DNA from: Candidatus Shapirobacteria bacterium
GTDB lineage: Bacteria; Patescibacteriota; Microgenomatia; UBA12405
Assembly (NCBI GenBank): GCA_037142555.1
Contig: JBAXAJ010000001.1
Location: forward strand, 104,423-168,422
Direction: 5' to 3'
DNA: 64,000 nucleotides
Below are positions 6,000 through 56,168 of this stretch, in pieces (position 1 is the stretch's first letter; every line of letters begins with the position of its first letter). The notes below the pieces were generated by a model. That model did no database searches, was not told where the DNA came from, and saw only the letters and a list, made by a program, of their open reading frames with translations. Position numbers and translations under genes: made by a program.

Positions 6000-6038
6000 A
6001 TTAAAATTTTAGAAATTAGAAATTAGAAATTTAAATAT

Positions 6039-6521
6039 ATGTCAAGAAAAGGTCCAAGTAAAATTAGAGAAGTCAATCCTGACACTATCTACAACAGCAT
6101 TATAATTACAAAAATTATAAACTCTACAATGAGAGCTGGCAAAAGAGGTCCAGCTGAAAAGCAAGTTTATGATGCTCTAGAAATTCTTAAAAAAGAATAT
6201 CCAGCAGATGATGTAGTAGCTACCCTAGATAGAGCTCTAGAAAATATCAAACCAAAAGTTGAAGTTCGACCTCGCCGAATTGGTGGTGCTGTCTATCAAG
6301 TTCCAACTCCAGTTCGTGGTAATAGACAAAATTCTCTCGCTATTCGTTGGTTATTAACTTCTGCCCGAGCTAAAGCTAATAAGCAATATCATTCTTTCGC
6401 TGAAAAACTAGCTGCTGAACTCAGTTCTGCTATTAAAAGTGAAGGTGCTTCTGTAACTAAGAGAATGGAAATCGAAAGAATGGCTGATGCTAATAAAGCA
6501 TTTGCTCATTTGAGGTGGTAA
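6039..6521 (+). CDS. rpsG: 30S ribosomal protein S7
   Basis: The translation matches S7 (…RAGKRGPAEKQVYDALEIL…RWLLTSARAK…). Confidence 0.95.
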   Translation: MSRKGPSKIREVNPDTIYNSIIITKIINSTMRAGKRGPAEKQVYDALEILKKEYPADDVVATLDRALENIKPKVEVRPRRIGGAVYQVPTPVRGNRQNSLAIRWLLTSARAKANKQYHSFAEKLAAELSSAIKSEGASVTKRMEIERMADANKAFAHLRW

Positions 6522-10061: not shown

Positions 10062-10591
10062 TGCCAAATTTCATTAAAACCAAAATCGAAGGTCTAGTTA
10101 TAATCGAACCATCAGTTTTTGCTGATGATCGTGGTTTCTTCATGGAAACCTACAACCAAAAAGTTTTTGCCGAAAATGGAATTGATGTCACTTTTGTTCA
10201 AGATAATCATTCCAGATCAAGCAAAGGTGTTTTGCGAGGTCTTCATTTTCAACAAGAGCCTTATGCTCAAGACAAACTAATCAGATGCACCAAGGGTGAA
10301 GTTTTTGATGTCGCTATTGATCTTCGACCAGACTCACCAACTTTTGGCCAATATGAAGGCATAGTTCTTTCAGAAGAAAATAAAAAAATGTTTTTCATTC
10401 CAAAAGGTTTTGCCCATGGCTTTCTAGTTTTAAGTGAAATTGCCGATTTCCAATATAAATGCACTAATCTTTATAATAAAGAATCTGAAGGCGGTCTAAT
10501 GTGGAACGATCCAAAAGTCGCCATCGATTGGCCAAAATTAGACATAAATTATATTTTGTCTGAAAAAGATAATAACTGGCCAAATCTATGA
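10061..10591 (+). CDS. rmlC: dTDP-4-dehydrorhamnose 3,5-epimerase
   Basis: Cupin-like RmlC pattern (…FADDRGFFMETYN…GLHFQ…) and a length of 176 aa. The start overlaps the rmlB stop and the end overlaps the rmlD start (ATGA). Confidence 0.8.
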   Translation: MPNFIKTKIEGLVIIEPSVFADDRGFFMETYNQKVFAENGIDVTFVQDNHSRSSKGVLRGLHFQQEPYAQDKLIRCTKGEVFDVAIDLRPDSPTFGQYEGIVLSEENKKMFFIPKGFAHGFLVLSEIADFQYKCTNLYNKESEGGLMWNDPKVAIDWPKLDINYILSEKDNNWPNL

Positions 10592-11478
10592 ACAAAATAA
10601 TCGGAACAGGTTTAAGTGGTCTAGTTGGCAGTCGCATCGTCGAAATTCTAAAAGATAAATATGAATTTGTCGATTTTTCTCTAGATTCTGGTGTCAACAT
10701 TTTAGACAAAGAAAGTTTAGCTGCTGCTTTTGAAGCTAACAAAGATGCTGTTGCCATTCTTCATTTAGCTGCTTTCACCGACACTAATGCTGCTTGGGAG
10801 CAACTTGGGGATGAGACTGGTCTTTGTTATCAACTCAATGTTGAGGGCACCAGAAACATTTTAAATCTAGCCCAAAAATATAATCAATATTTTATCTATA
10901 TTTCCACTGATTTTGTTTTTGATGGTCAAAAATCAACTCCTTATCTTGAAACTGACGCTCCAACTCCAATTGAATGGTATGGTGAAACTAAATATCTAGG
11001 GGAAAAAGTAATTGAAGATTCAGGCTATCAAAACTTTAATATTTCCAGAATTACCTATCCTTACAGAGCCAAATTTGAACCAAAAGTTGACATCATCAGA
11101 AAAGTCATAGCTAAACTTCAGAATAATGAAGAAGTAAAAATGTTTTCTGATCAAATTTGCACCTACACTTTCATTGATGATATTGCTAAGGCTTTGGGCT
11201 ATTTTTTAGAAAATAAAACAAATGGAATCTATCATCTAGTCGGTTCATCTTCACATTCTCCATATGAAATGTGTCAAAAGATTGCCGAGGCTTTTAATTT
11301 AAACAAAGATTTAATTTCTGCTTCCAGTCTAGAAGACTACATTAAATCTCAACCAGAAGGGAGTCGCCCTTGGCAAAAGACTCTAACCACTTCAAACAAA
11401 AAAATAACTGATCTCGGAATTCACATGTCGACTCTTGAAGAAGGCCTTCAAAAAATCAAAATCCAAATGGGTCTTTAA
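10588..11478 (+). CDS. rmlD: dTDP-4-dehydrorhamnose reductase-like NAD(P)-dependent sugar-nucleotide reductase
   Basis: Gly-rich N-terminus GTGLSGLVG, a Y-x3-K motif (YGETKYLGE), a length of ~296 aa, and an operon position after rmlBC. Confidence 0.6.
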   Translation: MNKIIGTGLSGLVGSRIVEILKDKYEFVDFSLDSGVNILDKESLAAAFEANKDAVAILHLAAFTDTNAAWEQLGDETGLCYQLNVEGTRNILNLAQKYNQYFIYISTDFVFDGQKSTPYLETDAPTPIEWYGETKYLGEKVIEDSGYQNFNISRITYPYRAKFEPKVDIIRKVIAKLQNNEEVKMFSDQICTYTFIDDIAKALGYFLENKTNGIYHLVGSSSHSPYEMCQKIAEAFNLNKDLISASSLEDYIKSQPEGSRPWQKTLTTSNKKITDLGIHMSTLEEGLQKIKIQMGL

Positions 11479-31873: not shown

Positions 31874-32295
31874 TGAAAGCAAAAACTACAGTATTAAAAG
31901 GCAGTCATGTTGACAGAAGTTGGCATTTAGTTGATCTTAAAGGTAAAACTCTAGGTCGTGTTTGCAGTGAAATTGCTCAAATCCTTATGGGTAAAGATAA
32001 AATAACTTTTTCCTATCATCGTGATGATGGTGATTATGTTGTTGCCATCAATTCTTCAGAAATTGTCACTACTGGTAAAAAATTAAAAGATAAAATTTAT
32101 TATCACCACACAGCTTGGTCTGGTCATTTAAAAGAAGCCACTCTAGGTGAATTATTAAAAAAAGATTCTCGAAAAGTTATTTCTCATGGTGTCTATGGAA
32201 TGCTTCCAAAAAACAAACTCCGTGATGTCAGAATGACTAGATTAAAAATTTTTGTTGGTGAAGAACATAAATACGCCGACAAGTTCACTAAATAA
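31873..32295 (+). CDS. rplM: 50S ribosomal protein L13
   Basis: …WHLVDLKGKTLGRVCSEIAQILMGK… L13 motif. Confidence 0.95.
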   Translation: MKAKTTVLKGSHVDRSWHLVDLKGKTLGRVCSEIAQILMGKDKITFSYHRDDGDYVVAINSSEIVTTGKKLKDKIYYHHTAWSGHLKEATLGELLKKDSRKVISHGVYGMLPKNKLRDVRMTRLKIFVGEEHKYADKFTK

Positions 32296-32299
32296 AGCT

Positions 32300-32710
32300 A
32301 TGGTTAAAAAAACTAATTTAAATAAATACACTTACGCAGTTGGTCGACGTAAATCAGCCATTGCTACTATTAAACTTTTCCCAGGAAAAGGTGATTCATT
32401 AGTCAATAAAATGGCTGTTGATAAATACTTCCCAGGTGCTACCGACAAGATTAACTATAATAAACCTTTTGTGATTACTGAAACTCTTGGTAAGTTCTAT
32501 TTCGAAGCCAAAGTCATCGGTGGTGGAAAACAAGGTCAAGTTGAATCTTTGATGTTAGCAACTTCCAGAGCTCTTTTTAAACAAAATGAAACTCTTAAAC
32601 CAGTTTTAAGACAAGCAGGACTATTAACTGTCGATTCACGAGTCAGAGAAAGAAGAATGGTTGGAACCGGTGGAAAATCTCGCCGACAAAAACAATCTCC
32701 AAAGCGTTAA
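32300..32710 (+). CDS. rpsI: 30S ribosomal protein S9
   Basis: C-terminal …GGKSRRQKQSPKR S9 signature. ATG at 32300 follows the rplM stop at 32293-32295; the 32252 start in the ORF track is an overcall. Confidence 0.9.
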   Translation: MVKKTNLNKYTYAVGRRKSAIATIKLFPGKGDSLVNKMAVDKYFPGATDKINYNKPFVITETLGKFYFEAKVIGGGKQGQVESLMLATSRALFKQNETLKPVLRQAGLLTVDSRVRERRMVGTGGKSRRQKQSPKR

Positions 32711-32732
32711 GCAATATATTTTGTCTTTCCAA

Positions 32733-32760
32733 ATCCCTCACTCCTGTGGGGGATTTTTGT
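32733..32760 (+). terminator. Rho-independent terminator at the end of the ribosomal super-operon
   Basis: atccctcac-tcct-gtgggggat 9-bp stem followed by ttttgtttt. Confidence 0.65.
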
Positions 32761-32767
32761 TTTCTCT

Positions 32768-32830
32768 TATTGACAATATTTTCTATAATGTCTATCTTTA
32801 AATAACATTTAATATTTTATTTAAAAATAG
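32768..32830 (+). promoter_or_regulatory. Conserved upstream element (copy 1 of 3) with TTGACA and a TTAAATaacATTTAA palindrome
   Basis: Near-identical ~60-bp elements precede genes A, C and D; the palindrome lies at 32798-32812. Confidence 0.55.
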
Positions 32831-33796
32831 ATGAAAACATCCTCAATCGCCAAATTTTTAGTAGTAGCTCTAGTTCTAGGAGCTGGTGTGACCTTTGGAA
32901 CTCAAATGGTTCAAAAGAACCAAGAAAACCGAAGTCAAGCATTTGTTCCAGTAGCTGTTTGGGGATTAATATTAGTAGGAGATGCGATAGCTACTTGGAT
33001 TGCCACTCACCCAGATGCAACTCAGGCAATCGGTGAAGCAGCTTCTGAGACAGCGGGAGGAGTAGTGGATCTTTTAGACGATCCTGCAAATCCAGAGAGA
33101 CAAAGAATAATTGATGCAAATGCAGCAGCTTTAAAGTGTCCTGCTGGTTCAAAATATGAATGTCCTCCACTCACTTCACGGGGCGAAGGACCACCATGTG
33201 GTTGCAATAATAATGGTACTTGGACTCCAGTCTTAGTTAAAAAAGATGGTAAGTGTAGTACTAAAAATTATAATACTTGTGAATATGGTGCTGTTTATGA
33301 TAATTTAAAAGACACTACAACACAAGTTCTATGGCAATGTAAGGGTTCTGTTGGTGGCCAAACTGATTTTTGTACTGCGAACAAACCAAAAATCAATGGT
33401 ATTTGTTCTACAACAAAAAATAAATGTACTAAAGGAAAATATTCAGAACTTAAAGACACTGAAGATTATTATTATTGGATGTGTAATGGCACAGCCAATG
33501 GAACATCAGCTAAGTGTCATTCTTCAAAACCTAATAAAGTCAATGGCATTTGTTCAAACACAAAATATTCTTGTTCTAGCGGGACAGTAGTTAATAAAGT
33601 TGACACTACAATTGCCTACAAATGGAGCTGTAAAGGATCTAATGGTGGAAGCCAAACTCCTTGTGATGTAGATAAGCCTGGTGCTTGTGGTAAAACAAAG
33701 AATTCATGTTCTGCTGGTAAGTGGACTGATGTCACTGACACCACAGCTGCTTATAAATGGAAATGTGCAAATATTATTTGTAGTCTTAAAAAATGA
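32831..33796 (+). CDS. Secreted/membrane-anchored cysteine-rich repeat protein, paralog A (321 aa)
   Basis: N-terminal MK..IAKFLVVALVLGAGV.FGTQMVQKNQENRS module shared with B-D. The C-terminus carries repeated C-x5-C-x2-GK(Y/W)-x5-DT-x3-YKWKC modules. The stop overlaps the B start (ATGA). Confidence 0.8.
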   Translation: MKTSSIAKFLVVALVLGAGVTFGTQMVQKNQENRSQAFVPVAVWGLILVGDAIATWIATHPDATQAIGEAASETAGGVVDLLDDPANPERQRIIDANAAALKCPAGSKYECPPLTSRGEGPPCGCNNNGTWTPVLVKKDGKCSTKNYNTCEYGAVYDNLKDTTTQVLWQCKGSVGGQTDFCTANKPKINGICSTTKNKCTKGKYSELKDTEDYYYWMCNGTANGTSAKCHSSKPNKVNGICSNTKYSCSSGTVVNKVDTTIAYKWSCKGSNGGSQTPCDVDKPGACGKTKNSCSAGKWTDVTDTTAAYKWKCANIICSLKK

Positions 33797-34644
33797 AAAA
33801 ATTTAAAATAGCCAAATTTCTTGTAATAGCTTTAGTTCTAGGAGGAGGTCTTTTTTATGGAACCCAAATGGTTCAAAAAAATCAAGAAAACAGAAGTAAT
33901 GCTGCCGGGGGAGCTTTGGTAGCTGAAGGTATCGGAAAATTAGTTGCACCTTACGCAAAAGAGGCAATAAAGGGGTTAAAAGGTAATGACCCAATGCCAA
34001 CAGAAATTTATAAAAGTGGCACTGCTGTATGTGGTTTAAAAAGTTCATGTGAATCTGGGACATATGCACCTTTCTCTAGTGATGATAAGGAAATAAAATG
34101 GACTTGTCAAAAAGGTACTGGACTTAAGCTATTATGCAAGTATATAAAACCTAAAGTTGATGGTCTCTGTTCCACAGATAGAAATAAATGTAGGGCAGGA
34201 ACATTTAAAGAGTCTAAAGACAGTGAAGACCACTATTATTGGCTTTGTGAAGGAATAAATGGTGGATCATCACCATTATGTAATAAACCCAAACTAGTTT
34301 CTCGTGGTGGCACCGACAGACCAATCAAAGGTGTTTGTGGCGAAACAAAAAATTCATGTTCTACTGGTAAGTGGTCTGAAACCACTGACACCACAACTGC
34401 TTATAAATGGAAATGCAATACAACAGTTTGTTTAAAAGACAAAGCTCCTCTATGTGGTGTTTATGCTTTTGATGGTAAACCTATCAAAACAGCTTCTTGT
34501 TATGTTGGTAGTTTAGACAGACCAAACTTCGGACTAGCAATTTATGATGTCACTATTAATGGTAAAAAATATAAAGCATGGTATTGTAAAAACGGTAGTA
34601 GTAAAGTTTCCTGCACAAACAAAACGCCTGTCATAAACTATTAA
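33793..34644 (+). CDS. Cysteine-rich repeat protein, paralog B (283 aa)
   Basis: Shared N-terminal module; the C-terminal ~80 aa are near-identical to C at the DNA level. Confidence 0.8.
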   Translation: MKKFKIAKFLVIALVLGGGLFYGTQMVQKNQENRSNAAGGALVAEGIGKLVAPYAKEAIKGLKGNDPMPTEIYKSGTAVCGLKSSCESGTYAPFSSDDKEIKWTCQKGTGLKLLCKYIKPKVDGLCSTDRNKCRAGTFKESKDSEDHYYWLCEGINGGSSPLCNKPKLVSRGGTDRPIKGVCGETKNSCSTGKWSETTDTTTAYKWKCNTTVCLKDKAPLCGVYAFDGKPIKTASCYVGSLDRPNFGLAIYDVTINGKKYKAWYCKNGSSKVSCTNKTPVINY

Positions 34645-34685
34645 ATTCAAATTTTTTCCAAAAACAAAGCTTATTTACACTAATC

Positions 34686-34748
34686 ATTGACAAAGTTTCA
34701 AATTATATCTATCTTTAAATAACATTTAACAATCTTATTTAAAAATAT
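34686..34748 (+). promoter_or_regulatory. Conserved upstream element (copy 2) with the palindrome at 34715-34729
   Basis: ttgacaaagtttcaaattatatctatctttaaataacatttaacaatcttatttaaaaatat, about 90% identical to copy 3. Confidence 0.55.
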
Positions 34749-35606
34749 ATGAAAAAACTAGGAATAGCCAAATTTTTGGTCATAGCCTTAGTTCTAGGTG
34801 GTGGATTAATTTATGGAACCCAAATGGTTCAAAAGAACCAAGAAAATAGAAGCAAAGCCGCTGAATATGGTAAAACATATAATAATGGAGATGTTATTTG
34901 TGGTGTATCTATACCAGCTGATTGGAGAGGATTAGCAAAATGGAAGCTTCCAAGTGAAATATCTGACGCGGCTGTTGATGAATTTGAAAATGCAGTTTTT
35001 AAATGTAACAAAGATAAATGTACTTTCTCAACTGATTCTATAGGTGACTGGCAATATCTTGAATTTTGTGGCCCAGTTGCAAATACTAGGAAATCTTGCC
35101 AAGAAATAAATGGAGTTAATGCTTCTTGTAAAAATATTGAGGGTGCTTGTGCTTCTAAATTAAATACTTGTCAAAATGGAAAGTTTAAAGATACTGCTGA
35201 CACTCCAACTGAATATAAATGGAATTGTGAAGGAGTTTCAATTTTAGGTGGTACCACAAGTGGTACCACAGCATCTTGTTCTATAAAAAAACAAGTTTGT
35301 GGTGCCAACAGAAATACTTGTAAAATTGGTAAATATTCAAAACTGGATGACACTAACAACCAATATAAATGGAAATGCAATACAACAGTTTGTTTAAAAG
35401 ACAAAGCTCCTCTATGTGGTGTTTATGCTTTTGATGGTAAACCTATCAAAACAGCTTCTTGTTATGTTGGTAGTTTAGACAGACCAAACTTCGGACTAGC
35501 AATTTATGATGTCACTATTAATGGTAAAAAATATAAAGCATGGTATTGTAAAAACGGTAGTAGTAAAGTTTCCTGCACAAACAAAACACCATCTATAAAC
35601 TATTAA
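34749..35606 (+). CDS. Cysteine-rich repeat protein, paralog C (285 aa)
   Basis: Shared N-terminal module, a different middle region, and a C-terminus shared with B. Confidence 0.8.
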   Translation: MKKLGIAKFLVIALVLGGGLIYGTQMVQKNQENRSKAAEYGKTYNNGDVICGVSIPADWRGLAKWKLPSEISDAAVDEFENAVFKCNKDKCTFSTDSIGDWQYLEFCGPVANTRKSCQEINGVNASCKNIEGACASKLNTCQNGKFKDTADTPTEYKWNCEGVSILGGTTSGTTASCSIKKQVCGANRNTCKIGKYSKLDDTNNQYKWKCNTTVCLKDKAPLCGVYAFDGKPIKTASCYVGSLDRPNFGLAIYDVTINGKKYKAWYCKNGSSKVSCTNKTPSINY

Positions 35607-35685
35607 ATTAAAATTTTTTCCAGAAAAAACTGAAATTATTATTCTTTCGAATATTTAACATCAGTCATTGTTTCTTTTGCTAATA

Positions 35686-35747
35686 ATTGACAAAGTTTCA
35701 AATTATATATATCTTTAAATAACATTTAACAAATTTATTTAAAAAAA
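35686..35747 (+). promoter_or_regulatory. Conserved upstream element (copy 3) with the palindrome at 35715-35729; an A8 tract directly abuts the ATG
   Basis: ttgacaaagtttcaaattatatatatctttaaataacatttaacaaatttatttaaaaaaaatg. Confidence 0.55.
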
Positions 35748-36632
35748 ATGAAAAAATTAGGAATAGCAAAATTTTTAGTAATGGCTCTAGTTCTAGGCGG
35801 TGGATTAATTTATGGAACTCAAATGGTTCAAAAGAACCAAGAGAACAGAAGTAAAGCCGCTAATGAAATTACAACACAAGATGGACCCTGTGGTTCTACT
35901 GCTAATGTATGTCTTGATGGGAGACCTGCAACTAACATAACTTCAGACGCTGTTAAGAACAACTGGAAATGCCCATATAATGGAGGATTCGCTAGTTGTG
36001 TATTAATTAAACCAGGTGAATGTGGCACTAAAGCATATGGTGATTGTGTTGCTGGAAAATATCAAAATATAAATGGCACTAACACTCAATGGAAATGTGC
36101 TAATGTTACTTGCTCTATCCCAAAAACTGCAATACCAAAAGGACCTTGCGGTTCTACTGCTAATGTATGTCTTAATGGTGGATCTGCAACCAACATAACT
36201 TCAGATGCTGTTAAGAGCAACTGGAAATGCCCATATAATGGAGGATTAGCTAGTTGTATTTTAATTAAACCAGGTAAATGTGGTACTAAGTCGTATGGTG
36301 ATTGTATTAGTGGAACATATCAAAATATAAATGGCACTAACACTCAATGGAAATGTGCTAATGTTACTTGCTCTATGCCAAAAGTAGTTACAGCACCAAA
36401 AGGACCTTGTAGTACTACTGCCAATAAATGTGTTGATGGGAGACCTGCAACCAACATAACTTCAGATGCTGTTAAGAACAACTGGAAATGCCCATATAAT
36501 GGAGGATTCGCTAGTTGTATTTTAATTAAACCAGGCGAATGTGGCATTAAATATGGTAATTGTATTAGTGGAAAATTTGAAAAAATAAACGACATTCAGT
36601 GGAAATGTGCTAATGTTACTTGCTCTCTTTAA
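35748..36632 (+). CDS. Cysteine-rich repeat protein, paralog D (294 aa), built from three ~87-aa tandem repeats
   Basis: Shared N-terminal module. PKGPCGSTANVC…NWKCPYNGG…QWKCANVTCS is repeated three times with ~90% DNA identity. Confidence 0.8.
   Translation: MKKLGIAKFLVMALVLGGGLIYGTQMVQKNQENRSKAANEITTQDGPCGSTANVCLDGRPATNITSDAVKNNWKCPYNGGFASCVLIKPGECGTKAYGDCVAGKYQNINGTNTQWKCANVTCSIPKTAIPKGPCGSTANVCLNGGSATNITSDAVKSNWKCPYNGGLASCILIKPGKCGTKSYGDCISGTYQNINGTNTQWKCANVTCSMPKVVTAPKGPCSTTANKCVDGRPATNITSDAVKNNWKCPYNGGFASCILIKPGECGIKYGNCISGKFEKINDIQWKCANVTCSL
35880..36632 (+). repeat. Three tandem ~260-bp repeats inside paralog D
   Basis: 35883-36140, 36141-36407 and 36408-36629 align base by base with few substitutions. 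Confidence 0.8.
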
Positions 36633-36658
36633 AAACAATAAATACTTTGTCTATTCAA

Positions 36659-36693
36659 ATCCCTTCCCTCCACTATGGGAGGGGATTTTTGTT
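36659..36693 (+). terminator. Rho-independent terminator after the cysteine-rich cluster
   Basis: atcccttccctcc-acta-tgggaggggat followed by ttttgttt; its sequence resembles the terminator at 32733. Confidence 0.55.
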
Positions 36694-36716
36694 TAATTTA
36701 TTGTTAAAATAATTCT

Positions 36717-37466
36717 ATGACTTTAATCCAATCAATCATTTTAAGTATAGTTCAAGGCATATCTGAATTTTTGCCAATTTCATCATCTGGTCATTTAAAC
36801 CTTTTTCAGTATCTTTTTAATCTCCAACCATCCTTAACTTTAGACATTTTTCTCAATACTGCCACTTTTGTTTCAGTTTTGTTTTTTTTCAGAAAACAAC
36901 TAAACTATTTTTTTAAAAATCTAAAATACATCATTGTTGCTTCAATTCCAGCTGCTCTAGTCGGAATTTTCCTAAAAGATCAAGTTGAATCAATTTTTGC
37001 CGACATAAATTTATTACCATCTTTCTTCCTAATCACCGCCGCTCTCGTCTTTTCTACAAAATATTTAAATGGTAAATCTCAAAAATTAGACTACAAAAAA
37101 GCTTTGGTTATTGGATTTTTTCAAGCCATAGCCATTCTTCCAGCAATTTCTCGTTCTGGAGCCACCATTTTTGCTGCTCTTTTACTAGGCTTAGCGCCTA
37201 TAGAAGCGTTCAAATTCTCTTTTTGCTTATTCATTCCAGCTTCACTTGGAGCTTTGCTTTTAAGTGCTAAAGATCTCAAGGGCGCTAATTTTTTTGAACC
37301 AAACTATTTAATTGCTTTTGTAGTCACTACAATTGTCGGGATAATCGCTCTAAATATTCTTCAAAAAGTATTAATTGGTAAAAAACTTTGGATTTTTGGA
37401 TTTTACACTCTAATCATTGCCATTGTTACTTTCATCCTCTTAACATTCACCGGTTCTGCCGTTTAA
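36717..37466 (+). CDS. uppP: Undecaprenyl-diphosphatase
   Basis: GISEFLPISSSGHL signature and a PAISRSGATI second motif; 249 aa membrane protein. Confidence 0.85.
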   Translation: MTLIQSIILSIVQGISEFLPISSSGHLNLFQYLFNLQPSLTLDIFLNTATFVSVLFFFRKQLNYFFKNLKYIIVASIPAALVGIFLKDQVESIFADINLLPSFFLITAALVFSTKYLNGKSQKLDYKKALVIGFFQAIAILPAISRSGATIFAALLLGLAPIEAFKFSFCLFIPASLGALLLSAKDLKGANFFEPNYLIAFVVTTIVGIIALNILQKVLIGKKLWIFGFYTLIIAIVTFILLTFTGSAV

Positions 37467-37603
37467 CCTGTCCACACTCAATTTAATCAAGTTCTGTCTA
37501 GCCACTTTAACTATTTTTTTAGTTCTAGCGACCTTATTATCTTTTTTATTCTCAGGTTCAACCTGAAAAACTAATTCATTTTCGTATTGTATATTGTCCA
37601 TAT

Positions 37604-38560
37604 TTATATTTGTCCTGACATAAATTCTTTCCAAATTAAATATAATTCAGAAGTGGCAGTTGCATCTCTGGCCACATAGTCAGCAATTTTATTAAATTCA
37701 CTTTCATTAAAAAGTCGAGTCACATCATCTCCATGAACTCCTTCTTCTTTTGGATTTTCAATTCCAAAAGCCTTACAAATCATTTCTAGTTTAAAACTAC
37801 GGCCATTTTGTCTTATTCTGTTGGCCAAATCAATTGATTTATCAAATCCCCATTTTTTAATTTCAAATGGCATTTTTACTCGATTAATTCCTGATCGAAT
37901 CATTAAGAAAGGAAAATCAAAACCATCACCATTGTAAGTCACAAATTCTTCATAATTAGGTGTAATTTTCCAAAATTCTTCTAATAGCTCTTTTTCAGTT
38001 TTAAAAGTTTTATAAACAAAGTTTTCTTTCTCTGGCTTAATTTCTTTTGTTGATAGACTTAAAACAATACCAGTTTTTTTACCGATGTCATAAGCACCAA
38101 TTGCACAAACACTTCCAAAAATAGAGTATAAACCAGTTTTTTTCTTAGCTATTTCTTTGTCAGTCTCATTTTTTTCTAGATTATTTAAAAGATAGTCTTT
38201 TTCAACTTCATCCAAATCTTCAAATTTTTTTCCTAAAGTTTCAATATCAAAAACTAAAGTTGGAACAGAAGGGGAGAAATCACTAGCATTTTCACTTTCA
38301 ACAATTTGACAACTATCAATAATTAATCCTACTTTACCGTTATATTCTTGCGTCTTACCATTAACTTCAATAACTTTTCCTTCCTCAAAATTACACATCG
38401 AGATATTATTATTCCAAATTTTAGCTTCAATACAACCATTTATATCGCAAAGTTCAAGAATATAATAATTATCTCCTTTAACTGTTTGTCTAACTTCTTT
38501 GCTTTTAACTACAAAATGTCTGTCTCTAATTAATTCATTTGCTCCAATTTTTATTGCCAT
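37604..38560 (-). CDS. Predicted 3'-5' exonuclease (DEDD/RNase H-like fold, PolB-exo/YprB-like) with an N-terminal OB-fold
   Basis: LVFDIETLG (Exo I) and YNGDGFDFPFL (Exo II, DEDDy-like) motifs. The N-terminus VVKSKEVRQTVKGDNYYILELCDINGCIEAKIW is OB-fold-like. Confidence 0.55.
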   Translation of the reverse strand: MAIKIGANELIRDRHFVVKSKEVRQTVKGDNYYILELCDINGCIEAKIWNNNISMCNFEEGKVIEVNGKTQEYNGKVGLIIDSCQIVESENASDFSPSVPTLVFDIETLGKKFEDLDEVEKDYLLNNLEKNETDKEIAKKKTGLYSIFGSVCAIGAYDIGKKTGIVLSLSTKEIKPEKENFVYKTFKTEKELLEEFWKITPNYEEFVTYNGDGFDFPFLMIRSGINRVKMPFEIKKWGFDKSIDLANRIRQNGRSFKLEMICKAFGIENPKEEGVHGDDVTRLFNESEFNKIADYVARDATATSELYLIWKEFMSGQI

Positions 38561-38623
38561 AAATTGAATTATAACCTAATAACTTCTTTAAAAGAATTAG
38601 TCTTTTAAAATTGTAGAAACAAA

Positions 38624-38920
38624 GTGGTGCTTAATAATTCAAAATATAACATTTTTAATCAAAAATATGCTATTATTTATCGAATGAATGAAAAAGAAAA
38701 TTATAATAAAGCTCATCGTGAAATCGAAGAGATATTAATAAAATCAATCAAAGAAAAAACTAGTCCTGAAGATCGAATGGATACTTTAGATAAATATCTT
38801 GATGACTTAGAAAATAATGATCCTAACACTTTTGAAAAACTATTTAAATCAGAAAACAATCAACCAAACGAATTAATGAAAATTAATCAAAAATATTTTC
38901 CAAATAAGTTAAACAGATAA
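38624..38920 (+). CDS. Hypothetical protein (98 aa)
   Basis: ORF only; no Shine-Dalgarno or similarity evident. Confidence 0.3.
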   Translation: MVLNNSKYNIFNQKYAIIYRMNEKENYNKAHREIEEILIKSIKEKTSPEDRMDTLDKYLDDLENNDPNTFEKLFKSENNQPNELMKINQKYFPNKLNR

Positions 38921-39457
38921 TTAAACTTTGTCTTTTTTAAGTTCTCTGTAAACTAAAATCGTCAAGAGTGCTGTAAACAAATCAAAACAAGAAAAGAAGA
39001 TTAAAAGTGGGGCATGAGTGTGGGTATATCTATATATTTGATAAGAGGCAAATATTATTAAAGTTGTCGCCACCACTGGATAAGCCCAAAGTTTTTTTTG
39101 CAAAAGCATTGTAACCATAAAAATTTTAAGGACTCCATGAGCCAATAAATAAATAGCTCCAAACAAAGTTGCTCCAACTGATAATGTTTGTCCAAAACTT
39201 AAAATATGAGTAGCAATGAAATCATTTGGGTCCTGACTCAGTTCATGCTCAGTTAACATTAAAATAACTTTGTCAATTCTAGTTGAGTTAGACACATAAA
39301 ACAAAATTCCACTACCTAAAATTTCTAAAAATCCATCAATTCCTTTAATAATAATACTGACTTCAAAAATTCTAAAAATTATCTTAGCCGATTTATGCAA
39401 CAATCTTCCAATTTTTTTAAAAATCCCAATAATAAATTTAATTATCTTCATCATCAA
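38921..39457 (-). CDS. Hypothetical small integral membrane protein (178 aa, ~4 TM)
   Basis: Hydrophobicity pattern only. Confidence 0.45.
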   Translation of the reverse strand: MMMKIIKFIIGIFKKIGRLLHKSAKIIFRIFEVSIIIKGIDGFLEILGSGILFYVSNSTRIDKVILMLTEHELSQDPNDFIATHILSFGQTLSVGATLFGAIYLLAHGVLKIFMVTMLLQKKLWAYPVVATTLIIFASYQIYRYTHTHAPLLIFFSCFDLFTALLTILVYRELKKDKV

Positions 39458-39489
39458 ATTTGATTATATAGCAAAAAACTTGATATTAG

Positions 39490-39563
39490 TCGGGGATACA
39501 GGATTCGAACCTGCAACCTCACACACCCCATGCGTGCACGCTAGCCAATTGCGCCAATCCCCG
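39490..39563 (-). tRNA. tRNA-Pro (anticodon GGG)
   Basis: The reverse complement folds as a cloverleaf: acceptor CGGGGAT/ATCCCCG, D-arm GCGC…GCGT, anticodon stem CACGC/GTGTG with loop AT-GGG-GT, and T-arm GCAGG-TTCGAAT-CCTGT. No encoded CCA. Confidence 0.85.
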
Positions 39564-39633
39564 TCGTAATTAAACTATTTTACTTCACTAAAATATAATT
39601 TGCATATTTTTATTTGTAATTATAGAATAGGGC

Positions 39634-40350
39634 ATGGAAGGTGAAATAATTGAAAATTTTGAACCTAAAAACACTAGAGACACTATTATAGATAGACAGA
39701 AAGAATTTGTCTCTTCAGTTAAAGAAGAGTCTAAAAATTTACCAGCAATTATTGAACATACAAATGATTCAGAAGCAGTCAAAGTCAAACAGCTAGAAGA
39801 TGGAAGATATCTCTACGAAGTATCAGATAAAGACAATGATAAACTAAAATCATTTTTTATTAGTGATGACTTATTCAATCAGTTTCCTGAAGATTCAGAT
39901 CTTGATTGTAGTAGTTTTTTACGTAAAAAACTAACAGGCCCAATTATTGAATATAATGCTAAAAAAGATGATGGCACTGAAGAAATCCTCTACACCATCA
40001 AAAGTCGCGAAACTGATAAATATAAAGTTTTACAAGAAATGACTGGCCAAACTTATGATTATCTACCGACAGTCTTATTTTCTGCTAATTTAACAAGAGG
40101 GATTGTCCATGTCCCATGGTTAATCGATTTAAAACCAGAAGGAATTATAAAAATAGGTTTAAACCAGATTAATAAAGATGGCACTCTCAGAAAAGCAAAA
40201 GAAGAATGGTCATATATTTCTTATACCCCAACTGAAGAGGAGTTTGAAGAAATGGACAGAGAAAGAGAGGATAGATTTAATAAAGCCAAAGTTTATTTAA
40301 GCAACGTCGTACCAAACCTCCCTTTACTCGAAAACCCTAAAAATAATTAA
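39634..40350 (+). CDS. Hypothetical acidic protein (238 aa)
   Basis: ORF only. Confidence 0.45.
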   Translation: MEGEIIENFEPKNTRDTIIDRQKEFVSSVKEESKNLPAIIEHTNDSEAVKVKQLEDGRYLYEVSDKDNDKLKSFFISDDLFNQFPEDSDLDCSSFLRKKLTGPIIEYNAKKDDGTEEILYTIKSRETDKYKVLQEMTGQTYDYLPTVLFSANLTRGIVHVPWLIDLKPEGIIKIGLNQINKDGTLRKAKEEWSYISYTPTEEEFEEMDREREDRFNKAKVYLSNVVPNLPLLENPKNN

Positions 40351-40437
40351 TCTTCGGCTTTTATTCGGTTTTGCCCCTTGACTTGATATATTTCTTTTTG
40401 ATATCACTATAGATGTAAAGTTAATTTTAAAAAAAAT

Positions 40438-41493
40438 ATGAAAAAAACAACTATAAAAACAAAATCAGTCGCTAGTAACAACATCCAAGACAAAAAAATG
40501 GAGTCTGTCCGTTTAGCCATGGAACAAATCACAAAAAATTATGGAACCGGATCCATCATGTTAATGGGTGAAAAGAAAGCCGACATGTCAATTGAAGTCA
40601 TTCCTACTGGTTGTCTTCCTCTCGACATTGCTCTTGGTGTTGGTGGTCTTCCTCGAGGCCGAGTCACTGAAATTTTTGGACCAGAAGCTTCTGGTAAAAC
40701 CACTGTTTGTCTTCATCTAATTGCTGAAGCTCAAAAACTTGGTGGAACCGCTGCTTTCATCGATGTTGAACATGCTCTCGATCCTACCAGAGCAGCCACT
40801 GTTGGTGTAGATCTAGACAGTCTTTTAATTTCTCAACCAGACAATGGTGAACAAGCCCTAGAAATCGTTGAAACTCTAGTTCGTTCCAATGCTGTTGATG
40901 TAATCGTCATCGATTCCGTTGCTGCTCTAGTTCCAAAAGCCGAAATTGAAGGTGAAATGGGTGATTCAATGATGGGTGTTCAAGCTCGTCTAATGTCTCA
41001 AGCTCTAAGAAAACTCACTGGTGCTATTTCTAAATCAAAATGTGTTGTTATTTTTACCAATCAACTTCGTCAAAAAATTGGTGTTATGTTCGGCAATCCA
41101 GAAACAACTCCAGGCGGTGTTGCTCTAAAATTCTATTCTTCAGTCAGAATCGACTTAAGAAAAATTGCCAACATCAAAACTCCAGCTGGTGAAACCATTG
41201 GTTCCCAACATCGAGCCAGAATAGTCAAAAATAAAATTGCCCCACCTTTCAAAGAAGCTGAATTTGACATGATGAGTACCGAGGGTATATCTATCAATGG
41301 TGGAATAGTCGACCTAGGTGTCCAACATGGCCTAATCACAAAAGCTGGTGCTTTCTTCAAAATTGGAGATCAAAATCTTCAAGGTCGTGAAGCAGCCAAG
41401 AAATATCTTAAAGAAAACCCAAAAATTGCTGAAAAACTCAAAGCTGAAGTTTGGGAAAAGGTCAAAGATGCAAATCCTGTGGACAAAAAATAG
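40438..41493 (+). CDS. recA: Recombinase RecA
   Basis: Walker [10 protein letters not shown] and FIDVEHALD motifs. The true start may be the internal M at 40497 ([11 protein letters not shown]…). Confidence 0.9.
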
Positions 41494-42106
41494 TCGTTTT
41501 CCAAACAGAATCTATATCAAGTTTTCTGATGGTCTTTTATTGCCATTATTTATCGATGATTTAGTTAAATTATCCCTAAATTCTGGCAAAGAAGTTAGTG
41601 AAGACGAATTAAATATCATTATAAATTTATCTCTATCTTATCTTTTAAGAGATTATGCTCTTCGTCAAATTGCTCTTTCTCCTAGAAGTGAAAAGTCTCT
41701 AAGTCAAAAACTTAAAAAATACATCGATGGCCGAATCTATAAATATTCTATTCCTCAAAATAATCTAGATTTAAAAGATTTAACTGATCAGTGTGTTACT
41801 AAACTTAAAAGCCAAAAATTGATCAGAGATTCAGAATATATCGATTTTTTCATCAAAAAATATCATAACAAATCAAAAAAAGAGATAATTTATCTTCTCC
41901 AAAAAGAAGGTCTTAAAATAGACATTTCTCAATTAAAAGCTTCTGACATTGATAAAATAAAAAAATTAATTCAAAAAAAGAAGATAAATTCAGAAAAATT
42001 AGCTGATTTTAAGTATAAAAATAAAATTATGTCTTATCTATACCAAAAAGGATTTTCTATAGATGACATCAAAAATGTGATTGACGGATTGATGATTTCC
42101 AGTTAA
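41468..42106 (+). CDS. recX: Regulatory protein RecX (probable)
   Basis: It lies immediately after recA with a 26-nt overlap. [20 protein letters not shown] matches the RecX repeat motif (YALRLLxRRxRSExEL). The start is uncertain. Confidence 0.55.
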
Positions 42107-42263
42107 AATATAGGCAACTTAAATTAAAATATTAATTATTAAATTTAACTTTTTATATACGCACTCAAATGTTATTCAAATTTAAAAGATTATTAGCGCC
42201 TGTTTCTCATTTCTAATATCTTAGTGTAGCCGTGCTGTGTCGTAAAAAGTGAAGGAGTTCTTT

Positions 42264-43835
42264 ATGTTAGATAATTTTTTGTCCAGAGTTAAAGGTTTAT
42301 TTTCTGAAAAAACCTCAACTAAAACAGTCACTAAGAAAAATAGTGCAGTTAAAAAAGAAGTAAAAAAAGAAGAAGTCGTTAATCAAGATAAAAATAGGGT
42401 TGTCTTCTCACCAACCAAAACAGTTGAAGCAACTCCTGTTGCCCCAGCTCCAGTTGTTAACACAGCTCAAATTGATGCTGCCTTGCAAAATGCTAAAAGG
42501 ATAGAAGCTGATGCCAAAGCTAAAGAAACTGAAATTTTTCAACGTCTCTCTTCTCTGAATGATAAAGAGAAATACATGATTGAAAAAGAAAGATCTCTAG
42601 ACACTCAATCTGCCGAAATCAAAGCAAAAATGAATAGTGTTGAAGATCTCTATAAAAAACAATTAGAAAAATTAGAAAACATTTCTGGTCTTGATATTGA
42701 AAAAGCTAAACAATTAATAATTAGCAGCACTGAAAAGAAAATGGTCAGTTGGATTGCTAAAAAAGTTGAAGATGCTAAGGAAGAAATCAGAAACAAAGGT
42801 GATGAATTAGCCAAAGAAATTTTGATTGATAATATTCGTCATGGAGTCACTGATTATGTTGCTGAATACACTGTTTCCACTATTTCTCTTCCAGATGACA
42901 CCATCAAAGGAAAAATCATTGGTCGAGAAGGTCGAAACATTCGTGCTTTTGAAAAAGCTACTGGTGTTGAACTAGAGCTAGACGAATCTAACGATATCCG
43001 CATTTCTTCTTTTGATTCAACTAGAAGAGAAATCGCTAAACTATCTCTCGAAAAGTTGATCAAAGATGGTCGAATTCAACCTCTTAAGATTGAACAAATT
43101 GTGGCTCAAACTAAAAACGAAATGGAAAAGATTTTAATAAATGAAGGTCGAAAAATCTGCCAAGAAGTTGGAGTCTTTAATTTACCACTCGATTTAATGA
43201 GAGAAATTGGTAAATTTAAATTCCGCTACTCTTATGGTCAAAATTTAGCTAAACACACCATCGAAGCTACTAAAATTGCCACCGCCATTGCCTATGAGTT
43301 AAAAGCTGATGTCAACACTGTTCGGCTTGGAGCTTTATTACACGATATTGGTAAGGTAGTCACCGATCAAGAGGGGACTCACATTGATCTTGGTGTTGAT
43401 TTATTAAGACAATTCAAAGTCACTGAAGCCGTCATCAATTGTGTCGCTGAACACCATGAAGATAAAGAATTTTCTTCACTAGAATCAACCATTGTTTACA
43501 TTGGGGATGCCGCTTCTGGTGCTCGTCCTGGTGCTCGATATGAAGTCCATGAAGAATATCTTAAAAGAATGAAAAACATCGAAGAAGTTGCTAAAAACTT
43601 TCCTGGTGTTCTAAGTGTCGCCGCCTATCAAGCTGGACGTGAAGTTGTAGTTATTGTCGAACCTACAATAGTTTCTGACAATGAAGCTGAAGTTCTAAGC
43701 CAAAATATCGCTCAACATCTAGAAGAAGAAGCTAAATGGGCCGGTCAAATAAAAGTTACTGTTATTAGAGAGTTAAGAACTAGCAGTATTATTGTTGGTA
43801 ATAAAATCAATAATAATGCGGTAAAAAATGACTAA
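42264..43835 (+). CDS. rny: Ribonuclease Y
   Basis: N-terminal TM/coiled coil, a KH domain (IIGREGRNIRAFEKATGVEL) and an HD domain (LLHDIGK). GAAGGAG Shine-Dalgarno before ATG 42264. Confidence 0.85.
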   Translation: MLDNFLSRVKGLFSEKTSTKTVTKKNSAVKKEVKKEEVVNQDKNRVVFSPTKTVEATPVAPAPVVNTAQIDAALQNAKRIEADAKAKETEIFQRLSSLNDKEKYMIEKERSLDTQSAEIKAKMNSVEDLYKKQLEKLENISGLDIEKAKQLIISSTEKKMVSWIAKKVEDAKEEIRNKGDELAKEILIDNIRHGVTDYVAEYTVSTISLPDDTIKGKIIGREGRNIRAFEKATGVELELDESNDIRISSFDSTRREIAKLSLEKLIKDGRIQPLKIEQIVAQTKNEMEKILINEGRKICQEVGVFNLPLDLMREIGKFKFRYSYGQNLAKHTIEATKIATAIAYELKADVNTVRLGALLHDIGKVVTDQEGTHIDLGVDLLRQFKVTEAVINCVAEHHEDKEFSSLESTIVYIGDAASGARPGARYEVHEEYLKRMKNIEEVAKNFPGVLSVAAYQAGREVVVIVEPTIVSDNEAEVLSQNIAQHLEEEAKWAGQIKVTVIRELRTSSIIVGNKINNNAVKND

Positions 43836-43902
43836 CAATACTTGCATTTTGCCGATATTCCGCTATTATTAAAATAATTATTAATTAATTAACAAAAAAA
43901 TA

Positions 43903-44175
43903 ATGACTAAAAAAGACTTAATCGAAATCGTTTCGCAAAAAGCAAAACTCAGCAAAAAAGCTGCTAAGCAATCTGTTGAAACTTTCTTAAATGAAATTAT
44001 GAAAGCACTCTCTGGTGGAGAAGTTGTTAAGCTTTCAGGTTTTGGAACTTTCAAAACCAAAATGTTCAAAGCTAAAACTATCAAAGCTATTGGAACTAAA
44101 GAATCTAAAAAAATCGTCGCTCGAAGAATGCCTCGATACATTCCAGGAACCAAGATCAAGAAAATGGTAAAGTAA
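43903..44175 (+). CDS. hup: DNA-binding protein HU
   Basis: MTKKDLIE…GFGTFKTK…RMPRYIPGT matches the HU/IHF fold; 90 aa. Confidence 0.9.
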   Translation: MTKKDLIEIVSQKAKLSKKAAKQSVETFLNEIMKALSGGEVVKLSGFGTFKTKMFKAKTIKAIGTKESKKIVARRMPRYIPGTKIKKMVK

Positions 44176-44194
44176 TTTTTTTGAAATTAATTAA

Positions 44195-44221
44195 GCCCTC
44201 CGAATCTCGGGGGGCTTTTTG
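44195..44221 (+). terminator. Rho-independent terminator after hup
   Basis: gccctccga-atc-tcggggggc followed by ttttt. Confidence 0.7.
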
Positions 44222-44281
44222 TTACCTTGCGATTAACCTAAAAAACCTTTATAAATATATACAGTATGTATTTTATTTATT

Positions 44282-47200
44282 TTGTCTAAAAATTTGATCA
44301 AGTTTAGGTTCAAATTACCAATAAAGAAAAAAGTTTCAGACTATTTTTTTGCGCCTCGTTTTTACTTCTCCAGATTTCAGTTTAATTTAATCGCTGTTTT
44401 ATTCATCAGCATCGGTCTTGCCACTGGGACTTATTTAACCATGTCCAAAGTGATTTTACCTTCAATCTTCGCTGTGTCTCAAACTTCCAACACCCTAAAT
44501 TTTGATGTCGGCAGTTCTGGTAATTATAATTATGACACCTCCTCAGTCACTATTGGTGCCAGTGGTGTCCAACCAATAGCAACCAACAAATTTTCTAATT
44601 CTAGTTTCGCCACTAATAGTGTTGGTTGGACTTCAGATATCATAGTTCCAAATGGTTATGTCAAAGTTCCTGGAAATTCAACTTTTAGTACTACTGATTT
44701 TGCTGTTATGAAATATGAAGCTAAATGTGCTTCCACAAGTGACCCTGCTACTGGTTTAACAAGTCCTACTTTTATACCATTTTATACTTATAAAAATAAT
44801 GTAGATGATTGTATTTCAGCTAATAATAAGCAAGTAGTTTCAGTAGCTAATGGATATCCAATTGCCTTAATTACTCAGCCTGATGCAATCACCAAATGTG
44901 CCAGTGTTTCTGTTTCCGGTGCCACTGCTCATTTAATTAATAATAATGAATGGATGACTATTGCCAGAAATGCTGAAGCTCAAAACACCAATTGGTCTCT
45001 AGGCGCTGTTGGTTCTGGTTATTTATATGCCGGTAATAATAACATTGATACAAGTTACTCTCATTATATTTACAATGCATCGACTAATGATACAGGTAAT
45101 TATCGTTGTGCTTACACTAACACTGGTTCTTCAGACAATCCATCTCCTTGTCCTTATAACACAGCTCAAAATACTTCTGGAACTAGGGGAAGTCAAGTCA
45201 GAGTTTTAAAATTATCAAATAATGAATCAATTTGGGATATGGCGGGAAATGTTGGAGAGTGGATTAATAATACTCAAACAGGCACAACTATAGGCCCTAG
45301 TAGTATTTTAGAGTGGAATTCTTCTAGCCTTGCTTCTGGAGCTAGAGATCTTTATGGGCCATCAAGCTCTTCATATCTTAAAGCCCAGGGAATGGGGTCT
45401 TTCACTGGTGGTGCTTTGGGTAATGTTTTTATGCGTGGAGGTATTTATCTTGACTCTTTAGATGCTGGTATTTATAGTTTAAGTTTAAGTTCTAGTTCTT
45501 CTTATTTATATCCTGGAATTGGTTTTCGTTGTGCCATTTCTGGTAATGTTTTATCACAAGTATCAAATGTTGGTTTAGGAGCAAGTGGAGCTGCAAAAAT
45601 TATTGCTAATCCTGGATCAGATTCTAAGATTTATCAGACAATGGCCAATCTTACTACCAATTCTACTTACGACTTTTCCGCCTATGTTTATAATAATACT
45701 GCTGGTGGTATTGGTGGCACAGTCAATGCTTCTATTGCTCAACTAGAATATAATGGAGTTGGAATTACTACTACCTACACTAATTCAGGTTCAGGTTGGT
45801 GGAAACTTTCCGCCACCGTCACTGCGGCCAGTGGCTCACAAGAATTTGGTCTTCTAACCAAAGCCGGCAAAACAGTCTTTTCTGATAATTTTAGTTTAAT
45901 TCCTATTATTTCTCCTATCTACACCACCACTTCTTTTTATAATCGTCAAATTATGGAATGGAGCTCTTTTAGTGCAGTTGGCACTACTTTTGCCACTTCT
46001 CCAATTACTTATCAACTTTGTTCAACCGATGCTTCTATTTGTGAAAGTAGTAATACTTGGCAATATTGGAATGTCTCCAGTTCCACTTGGTCCAACGCCA
46101 CCAATCTCACTATGACTAATACTGCCGGAGATATAAATACTCATATCAGCACTTTCCCTGTCACCAACAAAAAAATTGCTGTCAAAATCATTATGACTTA
46201 TGATGGCACCAATGTTCCAACTCTTAGTTCCATTAATTATGGTTTTAAAATTGATAATCTTGCTCCAGTGACTAATGCTTCAAGTGTAATAATGAATTCT
46301 TCAATCGGCTTAACTTGGGCTAACACAAATCCATCTTTTACTTGGACAGCTGCCACAGATGATGATCCAAGTGCTTCAGGAATAAAGGGCTACTGTCTAT
46401 CTTTATCCACTACCACCGGTGGTGTCGATCCAGTTTCTTCAAAAGGCAAACTAGGCACTTCTCCAGTCCCTATTTCTGATAATATTTGTCAATTTATTGT
46501 TCCTTCAAATTCTCTAAATTTAAATACCGCTGGCTATTTAGCCTCGGCATTACTTGATTCTGAAGAAACTTATTATTTAAACATTAAAGCTATTGATAAT
46601 GTAAACAATGTTTTCCCTACTTCAACTTATTTTGAGTTCAAATATGACTCTACTAAACCTAGAAATGTCTCTTATATTTCTCCAGCTTCTGGCAATTTTT
46701 CCAATGTCGTTGATATGAGTTTTTCTTGGCCAATCAGTGTTGGTAGTAGTGTATCTTCATCAGATAGTGGCAGTGGAATTTTGGGTTGGCAATACCAAAT
46801 AAATACTAATGATGCTGATAAATGGCAAGGAAGCACTACGGCTCCAGAATTAGGTGGCCTAAAATATATTCCTAGTGGCACTTCTAGTTATAGCCTAGTT
46901 GAAGGTAAAGATGCTATTGTTTCCGGAAACAATGTTATTTACTTCAGAACTGTCGATAAAGCCGGCAATTTTTCTACCGATGCTACTATTCGCACTGGTA
47001 ATATTGCTTTTGGTGGTGCGGCTCCTGCTTTCAACCAAAATAATAGTGTCACTATCAATCCTAATACTTCTACAACTAATTCTTTTGCTCTGTCTTGGCC
47101 AAGTGCCACTGCTACTAATGGTCAAAGTGTCACTAATTATTACTATATGTTAAACACTCCACCACCATCAACTTTAGCCACTCTACAGGGTAATATTTCA

Positions 47201-55895: not shown

Positions 55896-55896
55896 A

Positions 55897-56168
55897 GAAA
55901 CTGATAAGCTGGATTTTGTTTAAGGATCATCTATCTATTCTCTCTACCTGAGGCTCTCAAAAGCTAGATATTAACGCCTCATCTTGAGATTTCCACCAGA
56001 AGGATGCTCGTTTCACTTCAGCCGCCGTAGCCTTCTTGCGAAGGTGGCTAGCTTGCTCGTCTCTGTAGCATTGCCCAAAGCTCACGCCCTGGCCCCTAAG
56101 GACTTCTGTGCTTTTTGTGGTCCAGACTTTCCTCCCCGAAAAATCGGGGTAGACCCTTCAACTTCTTT
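55897..56168 (-). ncRNA. rnpB: RNase P RNA (bacterial type A, reduced to ~270 nt)
   Basis: The minus-strand transcript contains GGAGGAAAGUCUGGAC (P4 5' strand), …ACAGAGACGAGCAAGC…, …GAAGUGAAACGAGC…, …CAAGAUGAGGCG…, and ACAAAAUCCAGCUUAUCAG (P4 3' strand, matching E. coli ACAGAACCCGGCUUAUCGG). The 5' AAAGAAGUUGA pairs with the 3' UCAGUUUCUUU to form P1. GC content is locally elevated. Confidence 0.8.

Follow-up and report, generated by a model that had tools for sequence, protein, structure and literature searches.

A triplicated pair of four-cysteine modules in a putatively exported protein of a Candidatus Shapirobacteria bacterium

The 64-kb stretch of Candidatus Shapirobacteria DNA analysed here, which we refer to as the window, contains a gene (D; Table 1) in which one segment is repeated three times in frame, raising the question as to whether this is a locus whose length changes readily, as the initial annotation supposed when it likened the repeats to those of variable adhesin families, or the product of ordinary domain amplification, and what sort of protein has been built in this way. 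The identical 294-aa sequence is present in NCBI, JGI and ENA, where it is either called hypothetical or left nameless, and we find no named or experimentally studied homologue.

Tandem Repeats Finder places the array at 35866-36626, with a period of 258, 3.0 copies, 86% matches, 2% indels and a score of 1116, by far the strongest tandem array in the window and one that bears out the description of D as three in-frame tandem repeats of about 260 bp. The same three copies are recovered by a second repeat search, and the array lies wholly in frame within a single ORF. The start and end previously assigned to the first unit hold, but the third begins at 36402 rather than 36408, and the proposed length of about 87 residues fits the first two units (U1 and U2) and not the third, U3. 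The consensus peptide that had been quoted is essentially right, but each unit carries eight cysteines and not ten; cysteine makes up 8% of D and is scarce in the other window ORFs examined. Nor are the repeats perfect, long and protein-coding as they are: DNA identity is 89.1% for U1/U2, 88.6% for U1/U3 and 87.3% for U2/U3, protein identity is 83%, 80% and 75% respectively, there are indels, the linkers differ (IPKTAIPK versus MPKVVTAPK), and each pair of units has 28-29 mismatches. Two antisense ORFs (35828-36028, minus strand, 66 aa; 36344-36595, minus strand, 83 aa) resemble one another simply as mirror images of the tandem units, and show no sign of being genes.

Table 1. Coordinates of gene D, its repeat units and modules, and associated features. 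Positions are those of the window except for the last row, and module scores are from a local hmmsearch with the module profile.
Feature	Position	Strand	Size or score	Remarks
ORF D	35748-36632	+	294 aa, 24 Cys	NCBI: hypothetical protein WCG91_00790, Candidatus Shapirobacteria MAG
N-terminal leader of D	35748-35858	+	residues 1-37	MKKLGIAKFLVMALVLGGGLIYGTQMVQKNQENRSKA
Unit U1	35883-36140	+	258 nt, 86 aa, 8 Cys	a long module (a), then a short one (b) and the linker IPKTAIPK
Unit U2	36141-36401	+	261 nt, 87 aa, 8 Cys	89.1% nt / 82.6% aa identity to U1
Unit U3	36402-36629	+	228 nt, 76 aa, 8 Cys	terminal; without linker; in-frame deletions of 1 and 2 codons
Module 1, long	35880-36005	+	residues 45-86; 42.8 bits	
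Module 2, short	36012-36119	+	residues 89-124; 29.5 bits	
Module 3, long	36138-36263	+	residues 131-172; 38.7 bits	
Module 4, short	36270-36377	+	residues 175-210; 30.3 bits	
Module 5, long	36399-36524	+	residues 218-259; 43.1 bits	
Module 6, short	36531-36629	+	residues 262-294; 28.2 bits	ends …WKCANVTCSL
Paralog A	32831-33796	+		same leader (32831-32941), same module
Paralog B	33793-34644	+		same leader (33793-33903), same module
Paralog C	34749-35606	+		same leader (34749-34859), same module
Promoter-like site	35687-35715	+		TTGACA-17-TATCTT, upstream of D; consensus scan only
Terminator-like hairpin	36657-36688	+	12 pairs, then T run	closes the four-gene cluster
Terminator-like hairpin	32731-32756			other bracket of the four-gene cluster
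Leader-bearing genes of genome L002	4585-6282 and 8349-10250			Big_2 + Cohesin + modules, or Dockerin

Each unit is itself composite, consisting of two modules, each some 40 residues long and containing four cysteines, with the pattern NGxCGxxxNxCxxG…WxCxG..GG….C, such that the protein has the architecture of a leader followed by three pairs of a long and a short module, six modules in all. The long form (GPCGSTANVCLDG…NNWKCPYNGGFASC) has the spacing C-x6-C…W-K-C-x8-C, the short form (GECGTKAYGDCVAG…TQWKCANVTC) the spacing C-x7-C…W-K-C-x4-C, and successive modules are separated by 2-7 residues with a start-to-start distance of 42-44 residues. When 28 copies are aligned, six columns are invariant (C4, C11, G14, W29, C31 and C40) and the consensus is xGxCGxxxNxCxxGxxxxxxDxxxxYxWxCxGxxGGxxxxC, with the invariant order C, C-x2-G, W-x-C, C, spread over some 33-45 residues, kept in each of the six D modules. 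Four paralogs, A to D, stand in tandem, D being the last, and all have the same N-terminal leader; the module is also present in A (four copies), B (three) and C (two). The C-terminus of A (…WKCANIICSLKK) resembles that of D, and A likewise ends with a long and a short module, a pair sharing 35% identity with U1; the D unit probably derives from such a terminal didomain.

The wider distribution of the module is not evident from word-indexed protein searches, which returned a single uninformative match for each of two module alignments, and the family was revealed by an exhaustive HMMER search with a 43-position module profile (A2) against 1.84 billion representative proteins. Of these representatives 1,942 match at E<=1e-3, a number that falls to 704 with the threshold at E<=1e-10 and to 134 with E<=1e-30; D itself matches at E = 3.3e-49 over six stretches, and the number of copies per protein reaches 45, in a protein of 2,655 aa. 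Modules most often start 45-59 residues apart (1,398 module instances). A pair of modules at least 80% identical within four positions of each other occurs in 60 of the 153 proteins that have at least three modules, and there are super-repeats of two modules (P0111, P0120 and P0139) and of three (P0036 and P0044), from which it appears that intragenic amplification is a habit of the family and that D is a small example of it.

None of the established resources gives this family a name. Scans of A to D against Pfam and NCBIfam yield nothing at the curated thresholds, the only matches being chance ones below threshold (zf-4CXXC_R1, for example, scores 17.8 bits against a cut-off of 22.7 bits); no Pfam or NCBIfam match covers the module in ten family members; the module profile has no matches among PDB sequences at E<=10; and the top family members bear no informative source names. 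The module is similar to the Myxococcus cysteine-rich repeat, other bacterial Cys-rich repeats, EGF-like domains and zinc ribbons in having about 40 residues, four cysteines and long extracellular arrays, and none of the Pfam or NCBIfam models for known Cys-rich repeats scores at threshold, be it with D and its paralogs or with the scanned members of the family. The literature on Cys-rich repeats or leaders in CPR bacteria, Shapirobacteria, Patescibacteria and Saccharibacteria offers general mentions only: DsbA/VKOR and CAP-domain families are named, as is, for Roizmanbacteria, a "secreted cysteine-rich protein". More is to be learned from the company that the module keeps: in 53 further family members, where no single Pfam family is matched by more than three of the proteins, the neighbouring domains include PA14, CARDB, InlB B-repeat, RCC1, Laminin_G_3, fn3, Beta_helix, LRR, FG-GAP, NHL, Big_7, Peptidase_S8 and PG_binding_1. 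These are extracellular, adhesin-like architectures.

Structure prediction gives a confident fold for the repeat unit. A single-sequence AlphaFold model of the whole of D is unusable (pLDDT 40), and a model of U1 (80 residues) built with an 89-row alignment of module pairs reaches a pLDDT of 88 and a pTM of 0.65; it is all beta, with three strands in the long module and four short strands in the short one. Foldseek comparison of this model with the PDB and with viral models gives nothing at E<=1e-3. The differences among the three D units spare the Cys/Gly/Trp scaffold and the central W-x-C hairpin and cluster in the loop between the first two cysteines (C1-C2) and just past the second, a pattern that would be expected of exposed loops carried on a fixed, putatively disulfide-bonded frame.

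The leader begins with a lysine-rich segment, continues with a hydrophobic core of 15 residues and ends with a polar stretch, QMVQKNQENRSxA, that closes with a small-x-small motif (S-x-A); its consensus in A to D is MKK..IAKFLVxALVLGGGLxYGTQMVQKNQENRSxA. Comparison of the paralog leaders gives dN values of 0.01-0.14 and dS values of 0.55-1.2 (0.014 and 0.78 for C versus D), and the leader is under strong purifying selection. A perfect palindrome, TGGTTCAAAAGAACCA, is present in the codons for M-V-Q-K-N-Q in D, C and A (35824-35839, 34825-34840 and 32907-32922 respectively); it is broken in B, was flagged on the minus strand by a terminator scan, and may be a mere by-product of the conserved peptide. 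A protein search with D shows that the leader is common to 28 further, otherwise different Cys-rich proteins (P0004 and P0006-P0032), all from Shapirobacteria-like genomes, in which the match has 74-92% identity (mostly above 80%), covers 12-15% of the D query and ends right after NRSxA. It is absent from the top 150 module-family proteins outside the lineage of D, and no Pfam or NCBIfam signal model, prepilin or other, matches it in A to D or in four leader-bearing relatives. In another CPR genome, L002, the …MVQKNQENRSKAA motif stands after different hydrophobic segments, and two of its leader-bearing proteins differ in what follows: one has Big_2, Cohesin and two modules, the other a C-terminal type I Dockerin, which hints at an extracellular assembly of the cohesin-dockerin style in these CPR bacteria.

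We read the leader as a probable export signal of the Sec type, the conserved polar tail of which is unusual in its length. Cleavage could follow NRSxA, a point made uncertain by the distance of about 14 residues between the core and this site, which is long for a standard Sec signal; the uncleaved hydrophobic segment could otherwise act as an anchor. The C-terminus of D (…VTCSL) has no sorting motif. A family of DsbA/MdbA-like oxidoreductases is widely encoded by CPR bacteria, with VKOR as the gene most often next to it (in 76 CPR genomes; 10.1101/335083), and extracellular disulfide formation is therefore plausible; together with the high cysteine content this fits an oxidised, extracellular D. 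The same CPR-type leader is also found in two MAG contigs labelled "uncultured Gammaproteobacteria" (L004, 848-1183; L005, approximately 5974-6309), on a 111-aa protein in which it precedes a single module with a variant long loop (CGESNG…LCSNG…YNWSC…C). An frr-like ORF comes next in L004, as it does in L002, with the L005 counterpart out of frame in the translation examined, and both contigs are probably mis-binned or mis-labelled.

The four genes form a cluster that sits after the operon for ribosomal proteins and rpoA (…rpoA, rplQ, rplM, rpsI) and before uppP (BacA), bracketed by terminator-like hairpins. The start of B overlaps the stop codon of A, and a consensus scan alone places the promoter-like sequence found upstream of D also upstream of A (32770) and C (34687); A, C and D can be aligned with one another from this upstream site as far as the end of the leader. 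B and C share a different Cys-containing domain at their C-termini (…CGVYAFDGKPIK…KAWYCKNGSSKVSC…), and their last 80 codons (240 nt; 34402-34641 and 35364-35603) are 97.9% identical at the DNA level with a dS of 0.06, compared with about 0.9 for their leaders, which suggests that gene conversion or a partial duplication took place recently; an ENA protein (P0005) corresponds to B carrying the last variant residue of C. For a relative represented by a 949-kb contig (L006), whose UppP is 65% identical, comparison of positions 9515-10732 with 32252-37466 of the window shows that uppP lies only 85 nt past rpsI with no gene between them, so that the A to D cluster is an accessory, lineage-specific addition. 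Some other features of the window deserve mention. The 318-aa product of an ORF directly downstream of uppP (37604-38560, minus strand) matches the Pfam families DNA_pol_B_exo1, RNase_H_2 and DNA_pol_B_exo2 and looks like a stand-alone exonuclease of the family-B polymerase type; an RNase P RNA (55896-56166, minus strand) is only about 271 nt long, and the match kept among overlapping Rfam clan members is a full-length one to RF00373 (115.5 bits), which is an archaeal and not a bacterial model; and a 27-nt tandem repeat (7884-7940, 2.1 copies, 93% matches), the consensus of which reads TTVTPTVTK in one possible frame, is located toward the 3′ end of an ORF of 486 aa (6531-7991).

How old, then, is the array in D, and does its length change? 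Pairwise comparison of the units gives dN values of 0.09-0.12, dS values of 0.20-0.22 and omega values of 0.41-0.60, and the units are under purifying selection. Because their dS lies between that of the paralog leaders and that of the B and C 3′ ends, the triplication is younger than the split of the paralogs and clearly not recent. Each site that varies among the three units is a singleton, and the numbers of unit-specific changes (8, 11 and 17) fit a star-like history. Among the collections searched D is carried by one genome only: there are no orthologs in the protein collection, the genome contigs or the JGI metagenome contigs, a scan of genome contigs with D finds only loci in which the well-matched part is the leader, and a scan of metagenome contigs with the leaderless repeat region finds no relative.

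One explanation for these repeats is that D is a contingency locus, in which RecA-dependent unequal crossover or slippage changes the length frequently to yield a variable adhesin. Unequal recombination within the array is physically possible, as the longest exact stretches common to the units are 60, 51 and 33 nt and recA lies in the window, 4 kb downstream of D; near-identical neighbours are frequent in the family, so amplification recurs, and length variation in the number of stalk domains is described for fibrillar adhesins (PMC8286594). The copies in D are, however, not the identical or near-identical DNA sequences of a contingency locus. A DNA divergence of 11-13%, a dS of about 0.2 and small indels, including those peculiar to U3, indicate that the three-unit array is old enough to have diverged and has not been homogenised, as frequent unequal exchange would have done. 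The evidence for copy number points the same way: a single 294-aa sequence recurs unchanged in NCBI, JGI and ENA, no variant of another length occurs among 5.8 billion protein clusters, and an 11,186-nt MEGAHIT k141 contig in ENA (L001) is 100% identical to positions 35447-46632 of the window, all three units included, though its end falls inside the 98%-identical B/C repeat. The three-unit state thus looks stable rather than actively phase-variable, and we regard a contingency locus as an unlikely description of D. That the neighbouring B/C repeat did break another assembly, and that the genome is a MAG, does raise the suspicion that the array is a short-read assembly artefact and that in reality the gene contains only one or two units; but an artefact would give identical copies, and those of D are distinct in sequence and linkers, the ENA contig agrees over 11,186 nt, and every unit has its reading frame, cysteines and module profile intact, such that we give this explanation scarcely any credence.

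Two further alternatives arise from the leader. The leader/core logic of the precursors of ribosomally made, post-translationally modified peptides resembles the pattern of a conserved leader followed by a variable Cys-rich tail, and the occurrence of one conserved leader of about 37 residues on dozens of unrelated Cys-rich tails could be read as making D a multi-core precursor with three cassettes. Such a reading is extremely improbable given that the leader has a membrane-type hydrophobic segment, that the tails are folded domains of 120-600 aa, among them cohesin, dockerin and Big_2, that the module folds confidently and reaches 45 copies among proteins 2,000-3,400 aa in length, and that no ORF resembling a modification enzyme is seen among the window ORFs translated and the annotated stretch downstream of D. 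It is also very unlikely, if somewhat less so, that the leader is a pilin-like helix and D a minor pilin or pseudopilin with a Cys-rich variable head. The single-sequence AlphaFold model draws, at low confidence, a long helix over residues 7-39, the leaders of two L002 proteins start KGFAQL… and KGFSQI…, recalling the G/F site of prepilins, and pilus genes abound in CPR genomes (10.1101/335083); but eight leader-bearing proteins give no prepilin, N_methyl or TIGR02532-type match at E<=1, A and B lack the glycine ahead of the hydrophobic stretch, there is no glutamate at +5, and the conserved part follows the hydrophobic segment instead of standing at its start.

We therefore return to an exported protein of repeated domains, for which the fibrillar adhesins, with tandem stalk domains of one family fewer than 35 residues apart (Monzon et al., BMC Genomics 2021, PMC8286594), provide the closest basis for comparison. 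D is similar to these in its tandem array of small, beta-rich domains of a single family at short intervals, and the module family as a whole is similar in its highly identical neighbours, its PA14, LRR, Big and fn3-type company and its extracellular context. It differs in that D is only 294 aa long, has no adhesive domain recognised by Pfam or NCBIfam, has no LPxTG, SLH or other recognised wall anchor, and is built of a module that is not among the Pfam stalk families. The name "adhesin" is a reasonable guess for D, suggested by the domain company of the module, and of the proposed variability what survives is the family's tendency toward near-identical neighbours. A further likeness is to BAD-1 of Blastomyces, described in the source cited as having 41 copies of 17-residue loops, each with one disulfide, and a WxxWxxW motif (PMC3708853); as portrayed there it is, like D, made of tandem short, cysteine-constrained, Trp-containing repeats, in its case in a surface protein, though it is eukaryotic and without sequence relation to D.

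The leader, too, has parallels. Several groups of Gram-positive surface proteins carry a conserved motif within the N-terminal export signal, including the YSIRK-G/S, KxYKxGKxW and SipW-cognate (TasA/CalY-type) signals. The first of these is listed as the signal domain YSIRK_signal, PF04650 (PMC8286594). The leader of D resembles them as a lineage-specific, conserved export-signal motif common to many unrelated surface proteins, but differs in that QMVQKNQENRSxA stands after the hydrophobic core and not before or inside it.

On balance we consider it probable that D is an exported, disulfide-rich protein of the "beads-on-a-string" type, built from a triplicated didomain and serving in binding or as a spacer at the cell surface or in secreted form. 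The leader would carry it across the membrane and then either stay as an anchor or be cut after NRSxA, leaving about 257 residues that would form the six modules, each of them small, all-beta and with four cysteines. A didomain like that at the C-terminus of A may have been triplicated in two rounds, by slippage or unequal recombination, with the copies subsequently drifting apart by 11-13% while the Cys/Gly/Trp scaffold and the W-x-C hairpin stayed fixed and the C1-C2 loop and the stretch past C2 changed. D may accordingly be seen as part of a lineage-specific, fast-evolving extracellular set at the surface of a CPR bacterium of the episymbiotic type. Its triplication is ordinary domain amplification, a routine way for extracellular repeat proteins to grow.

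Attachment to other cells is the presumed way of life of CPR bacteria, whose surface proteins are for the most part uncharacterised. The four-cysteine module is widespread yet has no counterpart in Pfam, NCBIfam or the PDB, so that it might merit an entry as a new domain family, and the leader is conserved far beyond an ordinary signal peptide and could mark a dedicated sorting route. A more speculative proposal, which we advance tentatively as a possibility, is that A to D belong to a lineage-specific surface proteome of Shapirobacteria-like bacteria in which the leader would be read by a specialised peptidase or sorting machine and Cys-rich, cohesin and dockerin parts would be interchangeable, the module would be a new extracellular binding fold, and the arrays would be evolvable, tracking the surface of a host or partner. 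A defined and recognisable CPR surface repertoire of this sort would offer a concrete target for experimenters.
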